A stretch of 46,075 nucleotides of DNA, filler included, from Candidatus Woesearchaeota archaeon (GTDB taxonomy: Archaea; Nanobdellota; Nanobdellia; SCGC-AAA011-G17; CAYFGV01): the NCBI GenBank assembly GCA_964342845.1. It is 7 parts of 7 records of this genome, joined end to end, with 100 filler letters (N's around TTAATTAATTAA, not from the genome) between each part and the next. Parts side by side here need not be neighbours in the genome. Positions count along the whole stretch, not along the records: positions 41,757 to 46,075 come from CAYFGV010000028.1; 6 more parts are not named here. The stretch is one strand, 5' to 3'. Every line of letters starts with the position of its first letter. The first letter of the stretch is position 1. A program made the position numbers and the translations under genes. The notes below the pieces were generated by a model. The model was not told the origin of the DNA. It did not search any database and saw only the letters and a program-made list of their open reading frames with translations. Shown here in pieces: positions 5,697-45,063 of this stretch.

Positions 5697-6917
5697 TTAA
5701 ATACTTTTTGGCTTAATCAAATAAACTTTATCTCCTTCTCTAACTCTTTCATCAACTTTAAAACTAAACAAACCTTTCTTAACTTCAGAAACATTCTTTC
5801 TATTAAAATCTCTAATCTCCAAAACACTTTGTTTAAAATATCCAGTAGTCTTCCCAATAACACAAATCTCATCTCCAACTTTAAAACCAGAAGATTCAAC
5901 TTTAATTTCAGCAACCTTAACCTTAGAAAAATAATTCGTAATCTTCCCAACATATTCTTTAACTTCAGTAGCTTTAGAACCATAACATTCAGAAAATTCT
6001 TTAAGGGGCTTTCCAAAATAAAATCCATCAGAAAATCCACGATTATAAACCTTAGATAATCTATCATAAAGTTCCTCTTTCAATTCATCAGTAAACTCAT
6101 TTCGAGAAATAGCATCCAAACCTTCTCTATAACATTTAACAACTTCATAAACATAATCAGCAGCTCTTGCTCTACCTTCAATTTTAAAAACATCTATAAA
6201 ATCTAACTTATCTAAAAATTTAATACAACACAAATCTTTAGGACTTAAAATATAATTACTACCAATCTTCAACTCTTTATTTTCTTCAACATCTTTTATC
6301 AAATATTCTCTTCTACAACTTTGCAAACATTCTCCTCTATTAGCAGAACAACCAAACTCAAACAAAGATAAGAAACATCTTCCAGAAACAGAAATACACA
6401 TTGCACCATGCACAAAGCATTCAATCTCCATCAACCTACCAGAAACACCTTTAATCTTTTCTTTTACTATTAGCCCTTTAATTTTTTTAATCTGTTCTAA
6501 AGAAAGTTCCCTAGCTAAAACAACCCTATCACAAAACTTAGAATAAAACCTAACAGCTTCAATATTACTAATAGACTTCTGCGTAGAAACACAAACATTA
6601 ATACCTAACTTATTACATTTCTGAATAACAGCTTGGTCACTTGCAATCACACCGTCAATCCCAACTTGTTTAACTTTTTCTAAAATCTTATCTAACAACT
6701 CCAACTCACCATCATAAATAATAGAATTTAAAGTTAAATAACATTTAACATTCTTACAAATCTCTTTAACTTTCTTCAACTCACTCAAACTAAAATTCTT
6801 AGCCCCTTTAACCCTCATGTTTAATTCATCAACACCAAAGTAGACACTATCACAACCAGCTTTAATTGCTGACCTTAGACATTCAAAATTTCCAGCAGGT
6901 GCCATTAATTCTACCAT
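5697..6917 (-). CDS. Peptidase U32-family Fe-S protein (TrhP/RlhA-like RNA hydroxylase)
   Basis: ELMAPAG, HGAMCISVSGRC, NRGECLQSCR, LSPKDL and KIEGR motifs, plus a C-terminal beta-barrel. Confidence 0.9.
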   Translation of the reverse strand: MVELMAPAGNFECLRSAIKAGCDSVYFGVDELNMRVKGAKNFSLSELKKVKEICKNVKCYLTLNSIIYDGELELLDKILEKVKQVGIDGVIASDQAVIQKCNKLGINVCVSTQKSISNIEAVRFYSKFCDRVVLARELSLEQIKKIKGLIVKEKIKGVSGRLMEIECFVHGAMCISVSGRCFLSLFEFGCSANRGECLQSCRREYLIKDVEENKELKIGSNYILSPKDLCCIKFLDKLDFIDVFKIEGRARAADYVYEVVKCYREGLDAISRNEFTDELKEELYDRLSKVYNRGFSDGFYFGKPLKEFSECYGSKATEVKEYVGKITNYFSKVKVAEIKVESSGFKVGDEICVIGKTTGYFKQSVLEIRDFNRKNVSEVKKGLFSFKVDERVREGDKVYLIKPKSI

Positions 6918-7614: not shown

Positions 7615-8712
7615 CTACGCATTCTCACTCAAACCTTTCCGCTCTCTAATTTGTTTAACAACTTTTTGTTGCAACATTTCAGGAACCTTCTCAAACATTT
7701 GATCAACTACAAAATGACTTCCACGTCCAGAAGTAGCACTTCTTAAATCACCAGTCAACCCAAACATTTCAGCAACAGGTAACTTAGCTTTAACAGTAAT
7801 TCTATCAACAGCTTGATCAACATTCATTAGCTGTCCTCTTTTATTTTGAATTAAAGCAGAAATATCTCCTAAAAAATCAGCAGGACTTTCAATTTGTAAT
7901 AATTGCAAAGGCTCAAACATACAAGCACCCGCTTTTAACATCGCCTCTTTAATAGAATCTCTCACAGCAGGATAAACCTGTGCAGGACCTCTATGAATAG
8001 CATCTTCATGCAACTTAGTATCCATTAAACTAACTTTCATTTTCATCCCAGGCTCTCTAGCCAAAGGACCAGCATTTACCACTTGCTCAAAAGCATCCAT
8101 TACCATTTCAATCACCTCTCCAATATGTACAATACCTCTTGTAGCATCAATTAAAACATTACCTTTAAAGACTTCTCTATAATTCTTAGCAGCCTTAGCA
8201 TCTACACCTAATGAAACTAATTTTTCAACAACAGATTTATCTTTTTTCTTAATCTTTCCTTCTGATAACTCTCCATCTTTAATAGCCTTGTAAATATTAT
8301 CATCCAATGGCTCAACAACAAAATAAAACTTATTATGTTTATTAGGACTTTTACCTTCAACTTCTGGACTCAGCTTAGTAATAGCTTCTCTATAAACAAC
8401 TATAGGGGAAGAAGTCTTAACCTCTAATTGTTTTTCTGATTTAATTCTATTTTCAATAATCTCTAAATGTAATTCACCCATCCCACTCATTAAATTCTCT
8501 CCAGTCTCTTCATTAATCTCAATCTTAATACTAGGATCCTCTTTACCAACCTGTCTCAACACTTCAACTAACCTAGGCAAATCAGAAGCCTTAGTTGCTT
8601 CAATACTTTTTGTAACAACAGGCTCAAAAATATGTTTAATAGCCTCAAAAGGTTCCATTTCATCTGTGGAAATTGTTTCACCTGCAAAAGTATCTTTCAA
8701 ACCTACAATACC
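7615..8712 (-). CDS. fusA: Elongation factor 2, C-terminal half (continues from 15134-16256)
   Basis: GMGELHLE, SPNKHN and the diphthamide loop LHEDAIHRGPAQ. 8658-8712 is the exact reverse complement of 16202-16256. Confidence 0.95.
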   Translation of the reverse strand, partial: GIVGLKDTFAGETISTDEMEPFEAIKHIFEPVVTKSIEATKASDLPRLVEVLRQVGKEDPSIKIEINEETGENLMSGMGELHLEIIENRIKSEKQLEVKTSSPIVVYREAITKLSPEVEGKSPNKHNKFYFVVEPLDDNIYKAIKDGELSEGKIKKKDKSVVEKLVSLGVDAKAAKNYREVFKGNVLIDATRGIVHIGEVIEMVMDAFEQVVNAGPLAREPGMKMKVSLMDTKLHEDAIHRGPAQVYPAVRDSIKEAMLKAGACMFEPLQLLQIESPADFLGDISALIQNKRGQLMNVDQAVDRITVKAKLPVAEMFGLTGDLRSATSGRGSHFVVDQMFEKVPEMLQQKVVKQIRERKGLSENA

Positions 8713-15133: not shown

Positions 15134-16256
15134 ATGGCAGATAAATTAACAGAACAAATTAAGGTTTTAATGAAACAATCTGATAAGATAAGAAATATTG
15201 GTGTTTGTGCTCATATTGATCATGGAAAGACTACATTCTCAGATAATTTGTTAGCAGGAGCTGGTATGTTGTCAGAAGAGTTAGCTGGTAAGCAATGTGC
15301 TTTAGATTTTCATGAAGATGAGACTGAAAGAGGAATTACAATTGATTCTGCTGCTGTTTCTATGGTTCATAAAGTTAAAGATGATGATTTTTTGATTAAT
15401 TTAATTGATACTCCTGGTCATGTTGATTTTGGAGGGGATGTTACTAGGGCTATGAGAGCTGTTGATGGTGCTATAGTTGTTTGTTGTGCTGTTGAAGGTA
15501 TTATGCCTCAGACTGAAACTGTTTTAAAGCAAGCTTTAAGAGAAAAGGTTAAGCCTGTTTTGTTTATTAATAAAGTTGATAGGTTAATTAAAGAGGTTAA
15601 GTTAACTCCAGAAGCTATGCAACAAAAGTTTGTTGAGATTATTACTTCTGTTAATAGATTTATTGAAGCAATGGCTCCTGAAGAGTTTAAAGAGAGCTGG
15701 AAAGTTAATGTTCAGGATGGTTCTGTTGCTTTTGGTTCTGCTTTTCATAATTGGGCTTTGAGTTTTCCTTATATGCAAGAAAAAGGGATTAGTTTTAAAG
15801 ATGTAATTGATGCTTATGAAGGAGAGCAACTTGATGAAATGGTTAAGAAAGCTCCCTTGCACGATGTTGTTTTAGATATGGTTGTTAAACATCATCCAAA
15901 TCCTAAAGATTCTCAGCCTTATAGGGTTCCTAAAATATGGCATGGTGATTTAGAAAGTGGAGTTGGTAAAAGTTTAATGGAATGTAACCCTGCTGGTGCT
16001 TTGGCTGGTGTTGTTACAAAGATTGTTGTTGATAAACATGCTGGTGAAGTTGCAACAATGAGATTATTTTCTGGAACAATTAAACAAGGACAAGAGGTTT
16101 ATTTAATTGGAGCTAAAAAGAAAGTTAGATTGCAACAAGTTTCTGTTTATAAGGGCGCACAAAGAGCTGCTTTTGATGAAATTAGTTGTGGAAATATTGT
16201 AGGTATTGTAGGTTTGAAAGATACTTTTGCAGGTGAAACAATTTCCACAGATGAAA
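15134..16256 (+). CDS. fusA: Elongation factor 2, N-terminal half
   Basis: [24 protein letters not shown] and NKVD GTPase motifs; truncated at the contig end. Confidence 0.96.
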
Positions 16257-36312: not shown

Positions 36313-36391
36313 AAACGAAACATATTTAAATACTAATTTTCATAATTTAAATTAAGTTTTAAAAATAAAACTAAAAGAGGTGAAAAAAAAT

Positions 36392-36703
36392 ATGGCAATT
36401 CTAAAAAGAAAAACAACTGCACGTAGAAAAGTTGCTGCTAAAAGAACAGTAAGGAGAGCTGGTGCAAGAAAAACTGCTGCAAGAAGAACAGTGAGAAAAA
36501 CTGCTGCTAAAAGAACAGTAAGGAGAGCGGGTGTTAGAAAAACTGCTGCAAGAAGAACAGTGAGAAAAGCAGGCGCAAGAAAAACTGCTGCTAAAAGAAC
36601 AGTAAGGAGAGCGGGTGTTAGAAAAACTGCTGCAAGAAGAACAGTGAGAAAAGCAGGCGCAAGAAGAACAGTGAGAAAAACTGCTGCAAGAAGAAAAAGA
36701 TAA
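36392..36703 (+). CDS. Protamine/histone-H1-like (Hc2-like) Arg/Lys-rich repeat protein
   Basis: 103 aa with 46 K/R and no acidic residues; alternating basic doublets and TAA/TV/AGA spacers. GAGGTGA SD, TATA box at about 36322 and a T-rich terminator. Confidence 0.8.
   Translation: MAILKRKTTARRKVAAKRTVRRAGARKTAARRTVRKTAAKRTVRRAGVRKTAARRTVRKAGARKTAAKRTVRRAGVRKTAARRTVRKAGARRTVRKTAARRKR
36497..36664 (+). repeat. Perfect 84-bp tandem duplication inside the basic repeat gene
   Basis: 36497-36580 equals 36581-36664 (KTAAKRTVRRAGVRKTAARRTVRKAGAR twice), with degenerate copies on either side. Confidence 0.9.
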
Positions 36704-39560: not shown

Positions 39561-40013
39561 ATGGTAAAAACAATATCAAAAGAGGTGCCTTTAGCTGAAA
39601 TTACATTAAGAAGATATGAAAAGCCTTATTCTGCTAAAAAAAGAGATATAACTAGGAAATTGTGTTTATCTACAGGTTTATTACAGCCAGGAGATTCTAG
39701 GGACGCAATTGTTGATGTTTTACAGGTTTTATTAGGTGCTAGAAAGCAGAAAAGATATTTGACTTCTTTAGAGGTTAAAGAGAGAGTTACAAAAAATAGG
39801 CAGAAAGAGAAATTACCTTTAAAGGGGTTGGCTGATTCTAATATTAGAAGGCAGTTAAAAAGATTAAAAGATTTTCAACTAGTAGAATGTATTAGGAATA
39901 AGTATAGGATAGTTGAATTTGAACATCCATCTGTTATTTTTGATAAAAATATAAAAGAAGGTTATTTGAAGAATATTACTGAGAGGGTTGAGGAGTATTT
40001 TAAGGCTTTGTAA
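39561..40013 (+). CDS. Conserved hypothetical protein, probable winged-helix regulator
   Basis: EITLRRYEKP, GLLQPGDSRD and SNIRRQLKRLKDFQLVE (wHTH-like) motifs. Confidence 0.7.
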   Translation: MVKTISKEVPLAEITLRRYEKPYSAKKRDITRKLCLSTGLLQPGDSRDAIVDVLQVLLGARKQKRYLTSLEVKERVTKNRQKEKLPLKGLADSNIRRQLKRLKDFQLVECIRNKYRIVEFEHPSVIFDKNIKEGYLKNITERVEEYFKAL

Positions 40014-40071
40014 TTAGTTTAAAAGGTTGTGTTTTTTAAGATAAGTTTAGAGACAGAAAATATATTAATTA

Positions 40072-40413
40072 GTGGTGTTTAACTATCCTATGGGCGATGT
40101 TTTTGTTTATAAAATCTATTCTACTTTTCGTAATCCTAGAAAGGAAGGGTTTTTTATGGAGGATGAGAAATCTGGAGATTTTTGTGTAACTGATGATATA
40201 GACTTCTTTGTGCGTGTTTTTCGTAATTACCGCAATAGGTTGGATTATAGGGGCGATAGAAGAGAATTTTGTACATATTCTGATGGTGATTTTGGAAGGC
40301 CTTTGATACCTTTAAATTTATATCTACTAAGGAGATTTAACAAAAAAGAGATAGAAGACTTAGAAAGGGAGATTGATAAAGTATATTATTTGAGTGGTTT
40401 ACCCGTAAATTAA
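40072..40413 (+). CDS. Hypothetical protein
   Basis: 113-aa ORF filling the gap; start uncertain; no family recognised. Confidence 0.55.
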   Translation: MVFNYPMGDVFVYKIYSTFRNPRKEGFFMEDEKSGDFCVTDDIDFFVRVFRNYRNRLDYRGDRREFCTYSDGDFGRPLIPLNLYLLRRFNKKEIEDLEREIDKVYYLSGLPVN

Positions 40414-40466
40414 AATAAAGAAACTCTAAAGAATAATCTTTTATACCTCTTTAATCTCTAATTTTT

Positions 40467-40976
40467 ATGATATATGAACCCCAAGAAGACTCTTATATGT
40501 TAGAAGAGCAAGTAAAAAAACTAGTTAAAAATGTTAAAGTTTTAGATATGGGAACTGGTTCAGGGATACAAGCTAGAGCTGCTTTAGAGAATAACTGTGA
40601 AGTTTTAGCTATTGATATTAACCAAGAAGCTGTTGATTATGTTAAGAAAAAAGGTATTAGAGTTATAAAATCTGATTTATTTTCAAATGTTGAAGGAAAG
40701 TTTGATGTTATTATATTCAATCCGCCTTATTTGCCTGAAGAAGAGTTAGAAGATGAAGAATCTAAGTTATGTACAACTGGTGGAAAGAAAGGAAGTGAGA
40801 TTGTTGAAAGGTTTTTGAAAGAAGTTAAACATTATTTAAATGAAAATGGTTTTATTTTGGTTGTTGTTAGTTCTTTGACTGGAAAAGATCTTTTTGAAGG
40901 TTTTAAATTTGAAGTTTTATCTGAAAAAAGTTTCTTTTTTGAGAAGTTATATGCTTATAGGTTATTTGTAGAGTAA
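40467..40976 (+). CDS. HemK2/Mtq2-like (aPrmC) release-factor glutamine methyltransferase
   Basis: IYEPQEDS, LDMGTGSG and FNPPY motifs. Confidence 0.9.
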   Translation: MIYEPQEDSYMLEEQVKKLVKNVKVLDMGTGSGIQARAALENNCEVLAIDINQEAVDYVKKKGIRVIKSDLFSNVEGKFDVIIFNPPYLPEEELEDEESKLCTTGGKKGSEIVERFLKEVKHYLNENGFILVVVSSLTGKDLFEGFKFEVLSEKSFFFEKLYAYRLFVE

Positions 40977-41206
40977 CTGTTGCTTTTTTTAAGATATTCT
41001 ACGCAATGATCAATTATAGTCTCTTCTGGCATTTCATCTGTAGGCATTCTTTTTTTTCTAAGAAATCTCTTAAGATATTCTAAGGATTCTGTTTTATTTG
41101 TTATACTACTTGAAACACAATAAGCTCCATATTTTAAGGACAGCTCGTTAAATTCTATTCTTTCTATATGTTCTTTTAAATTTTTAGGATTTGTTATATC
41201 TACCAT
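40955..41206 (-). CDS. Hypothetical protein
   Basis: 83-aa ORF with an upstream AAAGCTTAAATA promoter. Confidence 0.5.
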   Translation of the reverse strand: MVDITNPKNLKEHIERIEFNELSLKYGAYCVSSSITNKTESLEYLKRFLRKKRMPTDEMPEETIIDHCVEYLKKSNSYSTNNL

Positions 41207-41299
41207 AAACTTTAGGAAAATTTACCCTTATTTAAGCTTTATTGTTTATTAAAAATAAATCCATAAGGTTTATAAATGAGTTATTACTCAAAATTAACT

Positions 41300-41638
41300 A
41301 TGGTTAATAAAATTATAACACCGCAGGAGGTTGAAGTTTTTTACTTTATACCTGCAATAAGAAAGAAAATGGCTGTTTGTTTTAAAAAGCAAGGCTTGCA
41401 ACAAAAAGAGATTGCTCAAATTTTAGGTATTACAGGGGCTGCTGTTAGTCAATATTTACATGAAAAAAGAGCTAAAGAATTTAAATTGCCTAAGAAAATA
41501 GCTAAAGAAATAGAAGAATCTTGTAAGAAAGAGAATAAAAACATAGTAATGGAAATAACTAGAATCTTAAATCTATTAAAGAAAGAAAGATGTAGTTTGT
41601 GTTCTGATTTTAATGAATTTAATTGTAAAGGATGTTAA
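41300..41638 (+). CDS. Archaeal HTH transcriptional regulator with C-terminal cysteines
   Basis: PQE, IPAIR and QKEIAQILGITGAAVSQY..KRA motifs; Cys-rich tail; directly upstream of the iscS start. Confidence 0.85.
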   Translation: MVNKIITPQEVEVFYFIPAIRKKMAVCFKKQGLQQKEIAQILGITGAAVSQYLHEKRAKEFKLPKKIAKEIEESCKKENKNIVMEITRILNLLKKERCSLCSDFNEFNCKGC

Positions 41639-41756: not shown

Positions 41757-42537
41757 TAAAGTAAGTTATTTGGGTGTGGATAGTGGTGGTTTTGTTTCTT
41801 TGGAAGAATTAGAGAGTTTAATTACTAAAGATACTTTTTTGATTAGTATTCAGTATGCTAATAATGAGGTTGGTGTGATTCAAGATGTTAATGGAATAGG
41901 TAAGATAGCTAAAAAACATGGAGTGTGTTTTCATACAGATGCTTGTCAGGCTGGTCAGTTAGATTTAAGTGTTAAAAATATTGATTTAATGACTTTGAAT
42001 TCTAGTAAGGTTTATGGTCCTAAAGGTGTTGGATTGTTATATGTTAGAAAAGGTTTGAAATTAAAACCTATATTATTTGGTGGTGGACAGCAAGGTGGTT
42101 TGAGGTCTGGAACTGAAAATGTTTCTGGTATTATTGGTTTTGCTAAAGCTTTAGAGTTAAGGCAGAAAGATAAAGATTTAGTTAAGTTAAGAGATTATAT
42201 GATTAAAGAAATTTTGAAGATTGATAAAGCTGTTTTAAATGGTGATTCTAAGAGGAGATTACCTAATAATATTAATGTGTCTTTTATAGATGTAGAAGGG
42301 GAGAGTTTAGTTTTGTTATTGAATGAGTCTGAAATTTATTGTTCTACTGGTTCTGCTTGTGCTTCTTCAAAAATAGAACCTTCTCATGTTATTTTAGCTG
42401 TTACTGATAGTCATGAAAGAGCTCATTCTAGTTTAAGGGTTAGTTTTGGTTATGATTTTACTAAGAAAGATGCTGATGTTTTTTTGGATGTTTTGAAGGA
42501 GAGTGTTGAAAAATTAAGGAGGATTTCGCCGTTATGA
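41757..42537 (+). CDS. iscS: Cysteine desulfurase IscS/NifS, 5' truncated
   Basis: ANNEVG, HTDACQ, SKVYGPKG, RSGTEN and STGSAC motifs. Confidence 0.93.
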
Positions 42538-42932
42538 AATGGTTTTATTCGGATAAGGTAAAGGATCATTTTTTGAATCCTAGGAATGTTTTTAAGAGTG
42601 AAGAGGAAGAAAGGAATTTTAAAGCAGATATTGTTGGAGAAGTTGGAAATGTAATGTGTGGAGATATTTTAAAGATTTATTTGAAAGTTAAGGAAGGTAA
42701 GATTGTTGATTGTAAATTTAAGACGTGGGGATGTGCAAGTGCAATTTCTTCTATGTCTATGTTATCTGAGATGATTAAAGGGAAAACCTTGGATGAGGCT
42801 TTGAAAATTAAACCAAAAGATATTACTGGAAATTTAGAAGGTTTGCCTCCGCATAAGGTTCATTGTTCTGTTTTGAGTTTTAAGGCTTTGAGGGAAGCTA
42901 TTGAGAAGTATAAAGAGAAAAATAAGTTTTAG
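42534..42932 (+). CDS. iscU: Fe-S scaffold IscU/NifU-N
   Basis: YS..V.DHF.NPRN, CGD, GCASAI and LPPHKVHCS motifs. Confidence 0.95.
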   Translation: MKWFYSDKVKDHFLNPRNVFKSEEEERNFKADIVGEVGNVMCGDILKIYLKVKEGKIVDCKFKTWGCASAISSMSMLSEMIKGKTLDEALKIKPKDITGNLEGLPPHKVHCSVLSFKALREAIEKYKEKNKF

Positions 42933-42935
42933 AGT

Positions 42936-43400
42936 TTAATTAGTTAAATAATCTGATACATACCCTTTGTATTTTGTTTTTAATTTCTTAGGTAATGTTT
43001 CATAAGAACCAAATTCTCCTCTACAATTTTTGCTTCCACATTTACATTTTAAATCTTTTTTTGACATATTTGCTAGCTTTAATAATTCGGGAGCATAGTT
43101 TGGGACAATCATTGCATAGTCAATAGTAATTTCTTCATCTTTTTTTATATTTCTCATGGCTACAACTTCATTTCTATTTTTAATGCCGCAACTTGGATTA
43201 CATGAATGACATAGATATTTTACTGGAGGAAGAGGATCTATATATAATTCAAAGCCTATAGGAACTGTATACATACTTGGTTTTTTAGTTATTGGTCCGA
43301 ATACTACAAAAACAGTTTCATTTTTCTTGAAACCTCTTTTAGCAAAAATACTTTTTCCATATTTTTTAGTGTCTTTTATATAAATATTATTTTCAAACAT
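42936..43400 (-). CDS. SET-domain methyltransferase with post-SET zinc site
   Basis: GKSIFAKR, YLCHSCNPSC (NHSC variant), EEITIDY and post-SET CKCGSKNCRG. Confidence 0.9.
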   Translation of the reverse strand: MFENNIYIKDTKKYGKSIFAKRGFKKNETVFVVFGPITKKPSMYTVPIGFELYIDPLPPVKYLCHSCNPSCGIKNRNEVVAMRNIKKDEEITIDYAMIVPNYAPELLKLANMSKKDLKCKCGSKNCRGEFGSYETLPKKLKTKYKGYVSDYLTN

Positions 43401-43401
43401 T

Positions 43402-44094
43402 TTAATCAACATAAGCCTCTAATATTGCAGTTTTGTGTTTTATTTTAAGTTTTTTTGTTAATTCTGGAAATGTTTTTCCTTGTAATAAATCAAGAGTTAA
43501 TGCATCTATTTTACCAAGCCCAGGATAAGGAATTAAATCATAAATTACTTTTTTATATTTAAGCCCTTTGATAAAAATAGGGAGTTCATTAAGAACATAG
43601 GAAGATAAAATTTCAAATTCTTTTTTATTAAACTTGAAAATCGTATTTTCTTTAGGAATATCTATTATTTTTTTATAAAATATTGGATTTGTTTTAAATT
43701 CTGTTAGAATAGCTTTTTTAGCAGATTTATATTCTAGATCATTTTCTATATCATTCCATAATAATATGTGGACTTTTTGTTGTTGTTCTTGAGGGAGTTG
43801 TCTTATAATTTTAGCTATAGATTGTTTAATCTCTTTTCCTTTCTTTAATGCAACAGATAAGCTTCTTTTTTTAGTATATTTGTTTCTAACTTCATAATTT
43901 ATAGCATGAATTTTATCGGCAATCAGTATTACAACGTTTTCTTTTGTATTCTCTAAAGCCCAAAGGATATATTCTTTTATATTCTGTTTTGTGAAATATT
44001 TGTTACCTAAGCTTATACCTATCCAAATGTTAAATTTTTTGCTCTCAACTTCCTTTTTATCTGTATTTAGGTAATTTACTATCTTCATGAACAT
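43402..44094 (-). CDS. tRNA-dependent cyclodipeptide synthase (CDPS, XYP-like)
   Basis: 230 aa with IGISLGNKYF (catalytic Ser), ILIAD, YVLNELP (catalytic Tyr/Glu) and a downstream YP. Confidence 0.85.
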   Translation of the reverse strand: MFMKIVNYLNTDKKEVESKKFNIWIGISLGNKYFTKQNIKEYILWALENTKENVVILIADKIHAINYEVRNKYTKKRSLSVALKKGKEIKQSIAKIIRQLPQEQQQKVHILLWNDIENDLEYKSAKKAILTEFKTNPIFYKKIIDIPKENTIFKFNKKEFEILSSYVLNELPIFIKGLKYKKVIYDLIPYPGLGKIDALTLDLLQGKTFPELTKKLKIKHKTAILEAYVD

Positions 44095-44292
44095 TATTAG
44101 TCCAGTATCAATTTATAAAGTTTGTTAAACTTGGTTAATCCAAAAGTTATCTGTTTCCCTCCGCATAAAGTTCATATTTCAGTATATTTAGAATTACTTT
44201 GAGATCTACTAATTACATCAAAACATTTATAAACTCTAACTAAATCTAAAATTTAACCCATTTGTACTACATCAAGTAGGAGGGAAAAATAA

Positions 44293-45063
44293 ATGAATCA
44301 AAAAGCAATCTTAGAATCTGTAAAAAAATTAAGAGAAATCTCAAAGAAAAGAAATTTTTCTCAAACTTTTGATCTAATAATTAATTTACAACATATTAAT
44401 ATTAAAAAACAAGATGAAAAAGTTGATTTGTATATCCCTTTACCTCATGGAGTTAAAAAACCTAAGATTTGTGCTTTAATTGGTAGAGAATTAGAAACAA
44501 AATCTAAAGATTTGTTTTCAAAAGTTATTTTTAAAGAAGAGTTCATAAAATATGGTAAAGATAAGAAATTAACTAGAAAGTTGGCTTCTGAATTTGATTA
44601 TTTTGTAGCACAAGCTAATTTAATGGGAGATATTGCTACTGCTTTTGGTAAAGTTTTAGGTCCTAAAGGGAAAATGCCCAATCCTAAAGCTGGTTGTGTT
44701 GTACCGCCAATTATTCCTGATTTAAAACCTATTGTAACTAAATTAGAAAAAACAGCTAAATTAGAAACAAAAGGTGAATCTATTGTAAAGGCTTCTGTAG
44801 GTAAGGAAGATATGAAAGACGAAGATGTAGTTGAGAACATTTTACTTGTTTTTAATACATTAATACATAAACTTCCTCAAGAAAAAAATAATGTTAAATC
44901 AGTTTACTTGAAATTAACTATGGGTCAGCCAGTAGAGGTTACAGATAAGGGTGTTAAATTAAAAGAAGTTGTTAAAAAAGAAAAGAAAGTTGAAGAAAAG
45001 CCAAAAGTAGAAAAAAAGGTTGAAGAGAAAAAAGAAACAAAGGAAGAACCTAAAGAAAAATGA
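44293..45063 (+). CDS. rpl1: 50S ribosomal protein L1
   Basis: KRNFSQTFDLIINL, GKVLGPKGKMP and KLTMG motifs; charged C-terminal tail. Confidence 0.96.
   Translation: MNQKAILESVKKLREISKKRNFSQTFDLIINLQHINIKKQDEKVDLYIPLPHGVKKPKICALIGRELETKSKDLFSKVIFKEEFIKYGKDKKLTRKLASEFDYFVAQANLMGDIATAFGKVLGPKGKMPNPKAGCVVPPIIPDLKPIVTKLEKTAKLETKGESIVKASVGKEDMKDEDVVENILLVFNTLIHKLPQEKNNVKSVYLKLTMGQPVEVTDKGVKLKEVVKKEKKVEEKPKVEKKVEEKKETKEEPKEK

Follow-up and report, generated by a model that had tools for sequence, protein, structure and literature searches.

The methyltransferases Ndas1145, Ndas1149 and Amir_4628, encoded in actinobacterial clusters with cyclodipeptide synthases (CDPSs), are class I Rossmann enzymes. 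Such associations of CDPSs with tailoring methyltransferases, as well as C-terminal methyltransferase fusions, are described in PMC5767969 and PMC5816076, and one methyltransferase of a CDPS cluster was assigned to the UbiE type (PMC2922099). Among the CDPSs themselves, the closest described relative of the enzyme analysed here is ParcuCDPS (CDPS 90) of Parcubacteria bacterium RAAC4_OD1_1, which is known from the structure 7QB8 and from mutants and makes cyclo(His-Pro) and cyclo(His-Glu), according to the parts of PMC7613923 and PMC5816076 that deal with it. It is a member of the XYP subfamily, defined by Tyr-Pro at AlbC positions 202-203; it selects His through Y55, E174 and Y189, and hydrophobic substitutions at these sites shift it to Leu and Phe (PMC7613923). 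On the side of the SET domain, the closest precedent for action on a small molecule is BurB of Burkholderia thailandensis (PDB 9L4T/9L4V), a methionine S-methyltransferase overlooked in the original prediction, which needs no catalytic base to methylate free Met and contacts this substrate through main-chain atoms (PMC12542666). The locus presented here, a CDPS gene followed by a SET gene, is a combination of two known families for which we found no description, either in the main texts of the mainly open literature searched, where a joint search on the two domains yielded a single paper, on fungal chromatin, or in the SET passages of PMC2922099, PMC5767969, PMC2938197 and PMC11610984; SET neighbours may yet be named in the domain tables that accompany PMC5767969 or the operon lists that accompany PMC2922099.

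The window, i.e. the whole stretch of 46,075 nucleotides that was analysed, is a concatenation of contigs, and the CDPS-SET locus lies on one of them (C28, 4,319 bases). The original prediction was of a 230-residue CDPS reading frame whose TAA is separated by one base from the ATG of a SET reading frame. Both frames are present (Table 1) and the junction reads as described; the alternative start of the SET gene overlaps the end of the CDPS gene. The genome (573 kb, 28 contigs, 84.8% complete) has one CDPS match and one SET match; its rpl1 and HemK2 matches are archaeal, and its small size suggests a DPANN member. The pair is not an assembly artefact, because contigs from other public runs bridge the locus. 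Public marine metagenome contigs of runs X1, X3 and X4 span the end of iscU, the SET gene and the CDPS gene, a contig of run X5 spans the SET-CDPS junction, and one of run X1 extends from the CDPS gene to rpl1; X1 is possibly the source sample, and X3 and X4 give identical pieces. None of the runs listed as containing the locus is of RNA. At window position 43643, inside the CDPS gene, X3, X4 and X5 differ from the window by a single base, a strain difference. The G+C content of the CDPS gene (24.6%, 2nd percentile of 451 long reading frames) and of the SET gene (26.8%, 10th percentile), next to 27.2% for rpl1 (12th percentile), is a weak signal. An end of C28 shares a 55-base overlap with contig C14. 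Contigs C22 and C23 have the same 55 terminal bases, inverted (window 8658-8712 and 16202-16256), an assembly-graph overlap, and contig C27 holds a short internal repeat (36425-36669; self-match of 88% over 176 nt at an offset of about 69-84 nt) that falls within the reading frame 36380-36703.

Table 1. Positions of the features discussed in the text. Plain numbers are window positions; L and P codes denote loci and proteins from the comparative searches.
Feature	Position	Strand	Remarks
CDPS gene	43402..44094	-	230 aa from 44094; probably 228 aa from 44088
SET/post-SET gene	42936..43400	-	154 aa; in-frame alternative ATG at 43412 gives 158 aa
iscU/nifU	42534..42932	+	convergent; ends 3 nt from the SET stop
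rpl1	44293..45063	+	divergent neighbour; NF003244 match above cut-off
Archaeal TATA-like box	44111..44120	-	31 nt before ATG 44088, 25 nt before 44094
hemK2/iscS-iscU regions	39561-41638 and 41770-42932		hemK2 and its upstream neighbour shortly before rpl1 in relatives
GNAT gene beside CDPS	L006:5783-6238, L010:5733-6161, L013:5681-6235, L019:4564-5004		
GNAT gene beside CDPS	L058:1566-2000, L066:1022-1456, L080:3498-3971, L083:864-1019		
More distant GNAT member	L174:995-1354		follows a divergent CDPS
GNAT gene	L180:1501-1932		180 bits; ends 60 nt from the L168-type gene
Ham1/ITPase-like or S51 neighbours of CDPS	L015:2609-3160, L016:993-1529, L024:5680-6366, L017:5987-6616, L076:3308-3964		
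Very divergent CDPS-like family	L168:2037-2735, L180:1992-2873, P0263 residues 1-240		L168 and P0263 about 36% identical
Fused out-of-clade SETs	P0260, P0296, P0291, P0313, P0345, P0347, P0332		
Fused out-of-clade SETs	P0238, P0246, P0251, P0276, P0285, P0287, P0307		

The TATA box predicted to precede the pair was located on the minus strand. Taken by itself, its 8-mer occurs often, with 364 copies across the 573 kb, and TATA 6-mers are as frequent as chance predicts. Across the genome, however, the box begins 27-32 nt upstream of the ATG (98 hits at 258 starts examined), with one hit at 25 nt and none at 26 nt among the same starts. Since the spacing of 31 nt fits this peak, the CDPS most likely starts at 44088 rather than at 44094, and the resulting length of 228 residues is that of its nearest homologues. 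The box probably drives a leaderless transcript of the two genes.

The pair had also been described as lying like an insertion between iscU and rpl1. The slot before rpl1 is indeed variable among relatives: 11 out of 29 have the HemK2 gene there, and its contents are otherwise varied. But iscU is not a usual neighbour at this place, and neither it nor CDPS or SET genes occur within about 1.5 kb before rpl1 in any of the 29. The variable slot fits a gained cassette. We considered iscS/iscU and rpl1 as parts of the system and rejected them since these neighbours are not conserved; the iscS/iscU pair recurs at one other CDPS locus only (L005). The hemK2 gene, its usual upstream neighbour and an HTH gene lie at the end of contig C27, which precedes C28 by concatenation only. 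Judged from the relatives, true adjacency of the two contigs is plausible, in which case the HTH gene, iscS-iscU and the CDPS-SET pair would together occupy the variable slot. At the contig edge iscS is without its first 120 or so residues.

The identification of the first gene as a CDPS holds on profile and on fold. It scores 53.1 bits with PF16715 (cut-off 27) and 74.3 bits with TIGR04539 (cut-off 45), and its structural model (pLDDT 95.7) retrieves CDPSs in all the Foldseek matches listed, ParcuCDPS being the best (TM 0.77). ParcuCDPS also gives the best sequence matches in the PDB (E about 1e-28) and has the same length. Numbered from the start at 44094, residues S28, D60, Y166, E170, Y190 and P191 are invariant in 109 aligned homologues, taken from the 120 listed of 161 found. 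The first five align with the catalytic residues of ParcuCDPS, including the Asp that primes the Ser, and Y190-P191 falls on the Tyr-Pro of AlbC 202-203. The protein is thus an intact XYP-type relative of ParcuCDPS, with predicted activity. Genes of this kind are rare: they occur in 20 of the 401 genomes of the phylum and in 9 of the 240 of the order, counting G000. A single-protein query retrieved no relatives among viral contigs.

The substrates are likely to differ from those of ParcuCDPS. Pocket P1 reads WGLAWIFI, against GAYAWELY in ParcuCDPS, and pocket P2 reads IENFGGK, against FEWKYTR. The His-selecting residues Y55, E174 and Y189 align to L57, I173 and I188, i.e. the triad is replaced by Leu/Ile/Ile, so that His is an unlikely substrate, and we rejected the His-containing product of the original prediction. 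The P1 motif resembles those of Phe-, Leu- and Pro-accepting enzymes in PMC5816076, and the pocket residues support a hydrophobic first residue in the product. For P2 there is no counterpart among the motifs listed in the same paper; many members of the CDPS family have Glu as the second residue of P2, often together with another acidic one. Lys in the product would fit this acidic residue and also the alternative acetyltransferase partner described below. According to a 2022 review (PMC11610984), neither Lys nor Asp had by then turned up in the product of any characterised CDPS.

The second gene encodes a SET protein, as proposed, by profile (PF00856, 37.8 bits; cut-off 22.4) and by predicted fold (pLDDT 95.4). 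It has the SAM-binding His, a DY motif (D94-Y95) and the four Cys of the post-SET zinc site (C67, C119, C121 and C126), and C64 takes the place of the usual Asn in the NH motif. It belongs to a tight group of 53 homologues with 51-71% identity, beyond which identity drops to 35-49%. The fold, the zinc site, the DY motif and the best sequence scores are those of the MLL/SET1 and NSD/SET2 types, but several features set the protein apart. Tyrosines Y3858 and Y3942 of MLL1, the latter at the switch position, both stand at the catalytic centre (PMC2990719). The corresponding columns, assigned via their 84-residue spacing in the MLL1 alignment, hold V33 (Ile or Val in 48/53) and I93 (Ile in 53/53), i.e. 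the canonical tyrosines of the lysine channel are replaced by aliphatic residues. A stretch of 14-15 residues of SET-I is missing, Cys replaces the NH-motif Asn in 23/53, and no histone gene was found in this 84.8% complete genome. SETs outside the group are often without the channel tyrosines as well, so that their loss is not a marker of the CDPS link.

Structural comparison brings BurB as close as MLL1. The two tie at a VIA Z of 12.8, MLL1 (7w6a) with 120 aligned residues and an rmsd of 2.7, BurB (9l4t) with 127, the most among the top three, and an rmsd of 3.8; BurB also has the highest query TM-score (0.67) among the Foldseek matches listed. In sequence it is the weaker match (E 8e-17 with the SET profile, against 1e-22 for histone lysine methyltransferases), only 22-24% identical. 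Like our SET protein, BurB is a minimal SET plus post-SET enzyme. Its paper's primer sequences and numbering, on which the comparison rests together with structure scores, indicate that BurB shares with it a non-aromatic residue two before the conserved Tyr124, an Asp-Pro ahead of the His93 motif, the lack of an Asn before this His, and a Thr73-His93 spacing equal to that of the invariant T45 and H65 here (PMC12542666). BurB is proof that a small molecule can be the substrate of a SET domain, without fixing the substrate here, and because it holds Met through main-chain atoms, sequence cannot decide whether a SET belongs with the Met-binding ones. It works in a DMSP pathway with a decarboxylase, a transaminase and a dehydrogenase, according to the account of the pathway in PMC12542666, none of which is seen beside these CDPSs. 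The ESM Atlas matched only generic SET clusters.

The original prediction expected adjacency or fusion of CDPS and SET to recur in DPANN and CPR genomes, and it does. The 86 loci with relatives of the CDPS were reduced to 59 distinct near-full-length ones, and leaving out eight with less than 450 nt downstream gave 51. In 10 of these 51 a SET of one particular clade lies directly behind the CDPS, always in the order CDPS then SET, on the same strand, with a junction of -19 to +3 nt. Adjacent pairs sit in bacteria labelled Patescibacteria or Saccharibacteria and on metagenome contigs. Moreover, twelve proteins (P0232 among them) fuse a CDPS domain to a SET of this clade. When a profile of the 53 SETs was searched over a library of 1.84 billion representatives and the best 150 were examined, 36 were multi-domain proteins with a single SET; the eight top-scoring of these were all fusions with a CDPS, and a CDPS-like domain occurs in just one of the remaining 28, P0263. 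In five of the fusions the CDPS domain shares no more than 14-22% identity with the CDPS of the window. The profile scores of adjacent SETs are partly circular, as some are in the profile, whereas the fusions and L168 stand outside it.

A tree of 87 SETs (quick search, midpoint root) groups 36 of them in one clade (SH-aLRT 93). In this clade 22 are linked to a CDPS, two to a very divergent CDPS-like gene and 12 are without context, i.e. all 24 of known context abut or are fused to a CDPS or CDPS-like gene. Of the 44 SETs of known context outside the clade, one has a CDPS in its vicinity (L022, 355 nt away), and four profiles found no CDPS within flanks of about 1.5 kb at 32 out-of-clade SET loci, one of which (L145) comes from a genome marked unpublished. 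SETs as such are common in the phylum: at E 1e-10 they occur in 122 of its 401 genomes, a tally that includes genomes marked unpublished. A clade SET is found in G000 only (256 bits; next 134). None of our conclusions rests on the unpublished genomes. When 401 genomes of another small-genome phylum, that of G416, were searched blind, a single clade member came up, at L168, with a CDPS-like gene 8 nt ahead of it. The pairwise identities of partners correlate (Spearman 0.77 over 21 pairs and 0.83 over 16, values inflated by kinship). Hence, the pairing of CDPS and SET is more than chance: the clade goes with three very different CDPS types, in a fixed order, in archaea and bacteria. Conserved linkage and fusion make this a cluster of a CDPS and a candidate tailoring enzyme, like those of Ndas1145, Ndas1149 and Amir_4628, in which a CDPS adjoins or is fused with a SAM-dependent methyltransferase. 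Here, unlike in those actinobacteria, the methyltransferase is a SET (class V), the unit has two genes and the organisms are ultra-small archaea and bacteria. ParcuCDPS has no such partner named in the passages of PMC7613923 and PMC5816076 on it. Generic SETs from outside the clade occur within 80-620 nt of CDPSs at L004:3813-4250 and at L022:3985-4380 and 6069-6587.

The original prediction overlooked that a SET is missing beside the majority of CDPSs of this family: 41 of the 51 are without an adjacent one, including some with almost identical pocket motifs, and in the five SET-less CDPS genomes searched, all incomplete, no clade SET was found elsewhere. Those linked to a SET turn up in separate parts of the CDPS tree (10 changes), and a single origin for them was rejected (monophyly, AU test, p about 1e-49). 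We looked for a pocket signature exclusive to SET-linked CDPSs and found none; P2 differs among them, not what a single fixed acceptor residue would lead one to expect. As most CDPSs have no SET and the SET-linked ones are scattered, the SET seems to be an optional addition which itself depends on a CDPS. Flanking genes other than the partners are not conserved at these loci.

The CDPS-like gene of L168 belongs to a very divergent type, without a Pfam hit and with an hhalign probability of only 6% (E 0.006); its Ser, Glu and Tyr-Pro motifs align with those of CDPSs, and the first catalytic Tyr is Phe. This family occurs with SET, adjacent or fused, and also with a GNAT gene plus a class I methyltransferase-like gene.

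There is a second dedicated partner, alternative to the SET. One subfamily of GNAT acetyltransferases abuts the CDPS in eight distinct loci, in varying orientation, and the clade SET is absent from all the GNAT-linked CDPS loci found. At one of them, L010, the P2 motif is identical to that of the window's CDPS. A blind search for this GNAT in 502 genomes gave the L180 gene as best hit, and six weaker ones (82-141 bits) without a nearby CDPS. A shared acceptor that takes either a methyl or an acetyl group would most simply be an amine. An amine acceptor would keep the idea of Lys alive; it would equally feed the rival idea of protein-lysine modification. Other repeated neighbours of CDPSs are Ham1/ITPase-like and peptidase S51 (dipeptidase E type) genes.

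We lean towards a two-gene small-molecule pathway in which the SET optionally tailors the CDPS product or its intermediate. Given its intact catalytic residues and what is known of the family, the CDPS would take two aminoacyl-tRNAs via an acyl-enzyme on Ser28 and release a cyclodipeptide. The first residue would be hydrophobic, of the Leu, Phe, Met or Pro type, and not His, as the pocket residues suggest, and the second may be basic. The co-translated SET would then use SAM to methylate a side chain of the product or of the dipeptidyl intermediate. No SAM synthetase was found in the 84.8% complete genome, hence SAM would be imported, or the gene lies in an unassembled part. Within this pathway the methyl acceptor is tentatively an amine, be it on the side chain of Lys or a free alpha-amine; the sulfur of Met, which would become a sulfonium by analogy with BurB, is a weaker candidate, and any other acceptor would surprise us. 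Speaking for tailoring are the recurrent linkage and fusion, the dedicated clade, the correlated identities of the partners, the precedent of BurB, the fusions of out-of-clade relatives with amino-acid and amine enzymes and the failure to find a histone; the SET-less majority, the lack of an exclusive pocket signature, the variation of P2, the better sequence score with histone methyltransferases, the failure to find a SAM synthetase and the frequency of generic SETs, some of them near CDPSs, speak against it.

One might instead suppose that the SET methylates protein lysines and thereby regulates the CDPS, e.g. on a lysine-rich tRNA-binding helix, or a protein partner, tuning an enzyme that drains aminoacyl-tRNA. 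SET and GNAT enzymes are both classic writers of protein lysine marks. Their appearance as alternative partners of CDPSs suits regulation by methylation, which would also explain why the partner is indifferent to pocket motifs and goes with three very different CDPS types, and the best sequence matches of the SET are protein lysine methyltransferases. We nevertheless consider it unlikely, for both channel tyrosines of MLL1 (PMC2990719) are aliphatic in this SET. In addition, most CDPSs of the family are without SET or GNAT, which suggests that no obligatory antidote is needed. The SET might also act upstream of the CDPS, on a free amino acid or on the aminoacyl group carried by tRNA or by the acyl-enzyme, so that the CDPS would release a methylated or linear product, or the charged tRNA pool would be inactivated under stress. 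GNAT enzymes that acetylate aminoacyl-tRNA are known. BurB, which ties for the best structural match, methylates free Met (PMC12542666). But a free methylated amino acid would presumably reach the CDPS only if a synthetase charged it, and PADLOC 2.0 gives no defence-family match (a partial hit of 15 bits for the CDPS, none for the SET), which leaves action upstream distinctly improbable.

Finally, the two enzymes may have no biochemical coupling at all, the pair being co-travelling cargo of variable slots in small genomes and the fusions lost stop codons. CDPSs can do without the SET, SETs of the generic kind are frequent and now and then lie near CDPSs, and the short junction eases fusion. 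Yet cargo would hardly account for a clade that accompanies three very different CDPS types, always in the same order and in both archaea and bacteria, when every member of known context has such a partner and the other flanking genes are not conserved; we give this chance association little credence.

If tailoring is correct, CDPS pathways would acquire a kind of tailoring enzyme new to them, a SET (class V) protein and the first class V methyltransferase to act on a diketopiperazine, and prokaryotic SET domains would gain a second small-molecule role after that of BurB. The product could contain Lys or, as the alternative, be a Met-sulfonium diketopiperazine; we found neither described for CDPS pathways. 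It would also mean that symbionts with reduced genomes invest charged tRNA and SAM in making a modified metabolite, and the SET clade would give one of the phylum's frequent SET genes a partner. More speculatively, and less likely than not, ultra-small DPANN archaea and CPR bacteria might share a mobile CDPS family with interchangeable SET and GNAT finishing enzymes acting on the same amine. The simplest product would then be a Lys cyclodipeptide, N-methylated or N-acetylated, released towards the host as a signal or effector.

SETs from outside the clade are fused to ATP-grasp ligase, AdoMet decarboxylase, PLP decarboxylase and M29 peptidase domains, and also to short-chain-dehydrogenase-like and class I methyltransferase domains. 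These fusions suggest that there may be a wider group of small-molecule SET enzymes. Five further proteins (P0215, P0216, P0218, P0240 and P0279), of 855-1479 residues, consist of or include 5-8 tandem SET-like stretches.
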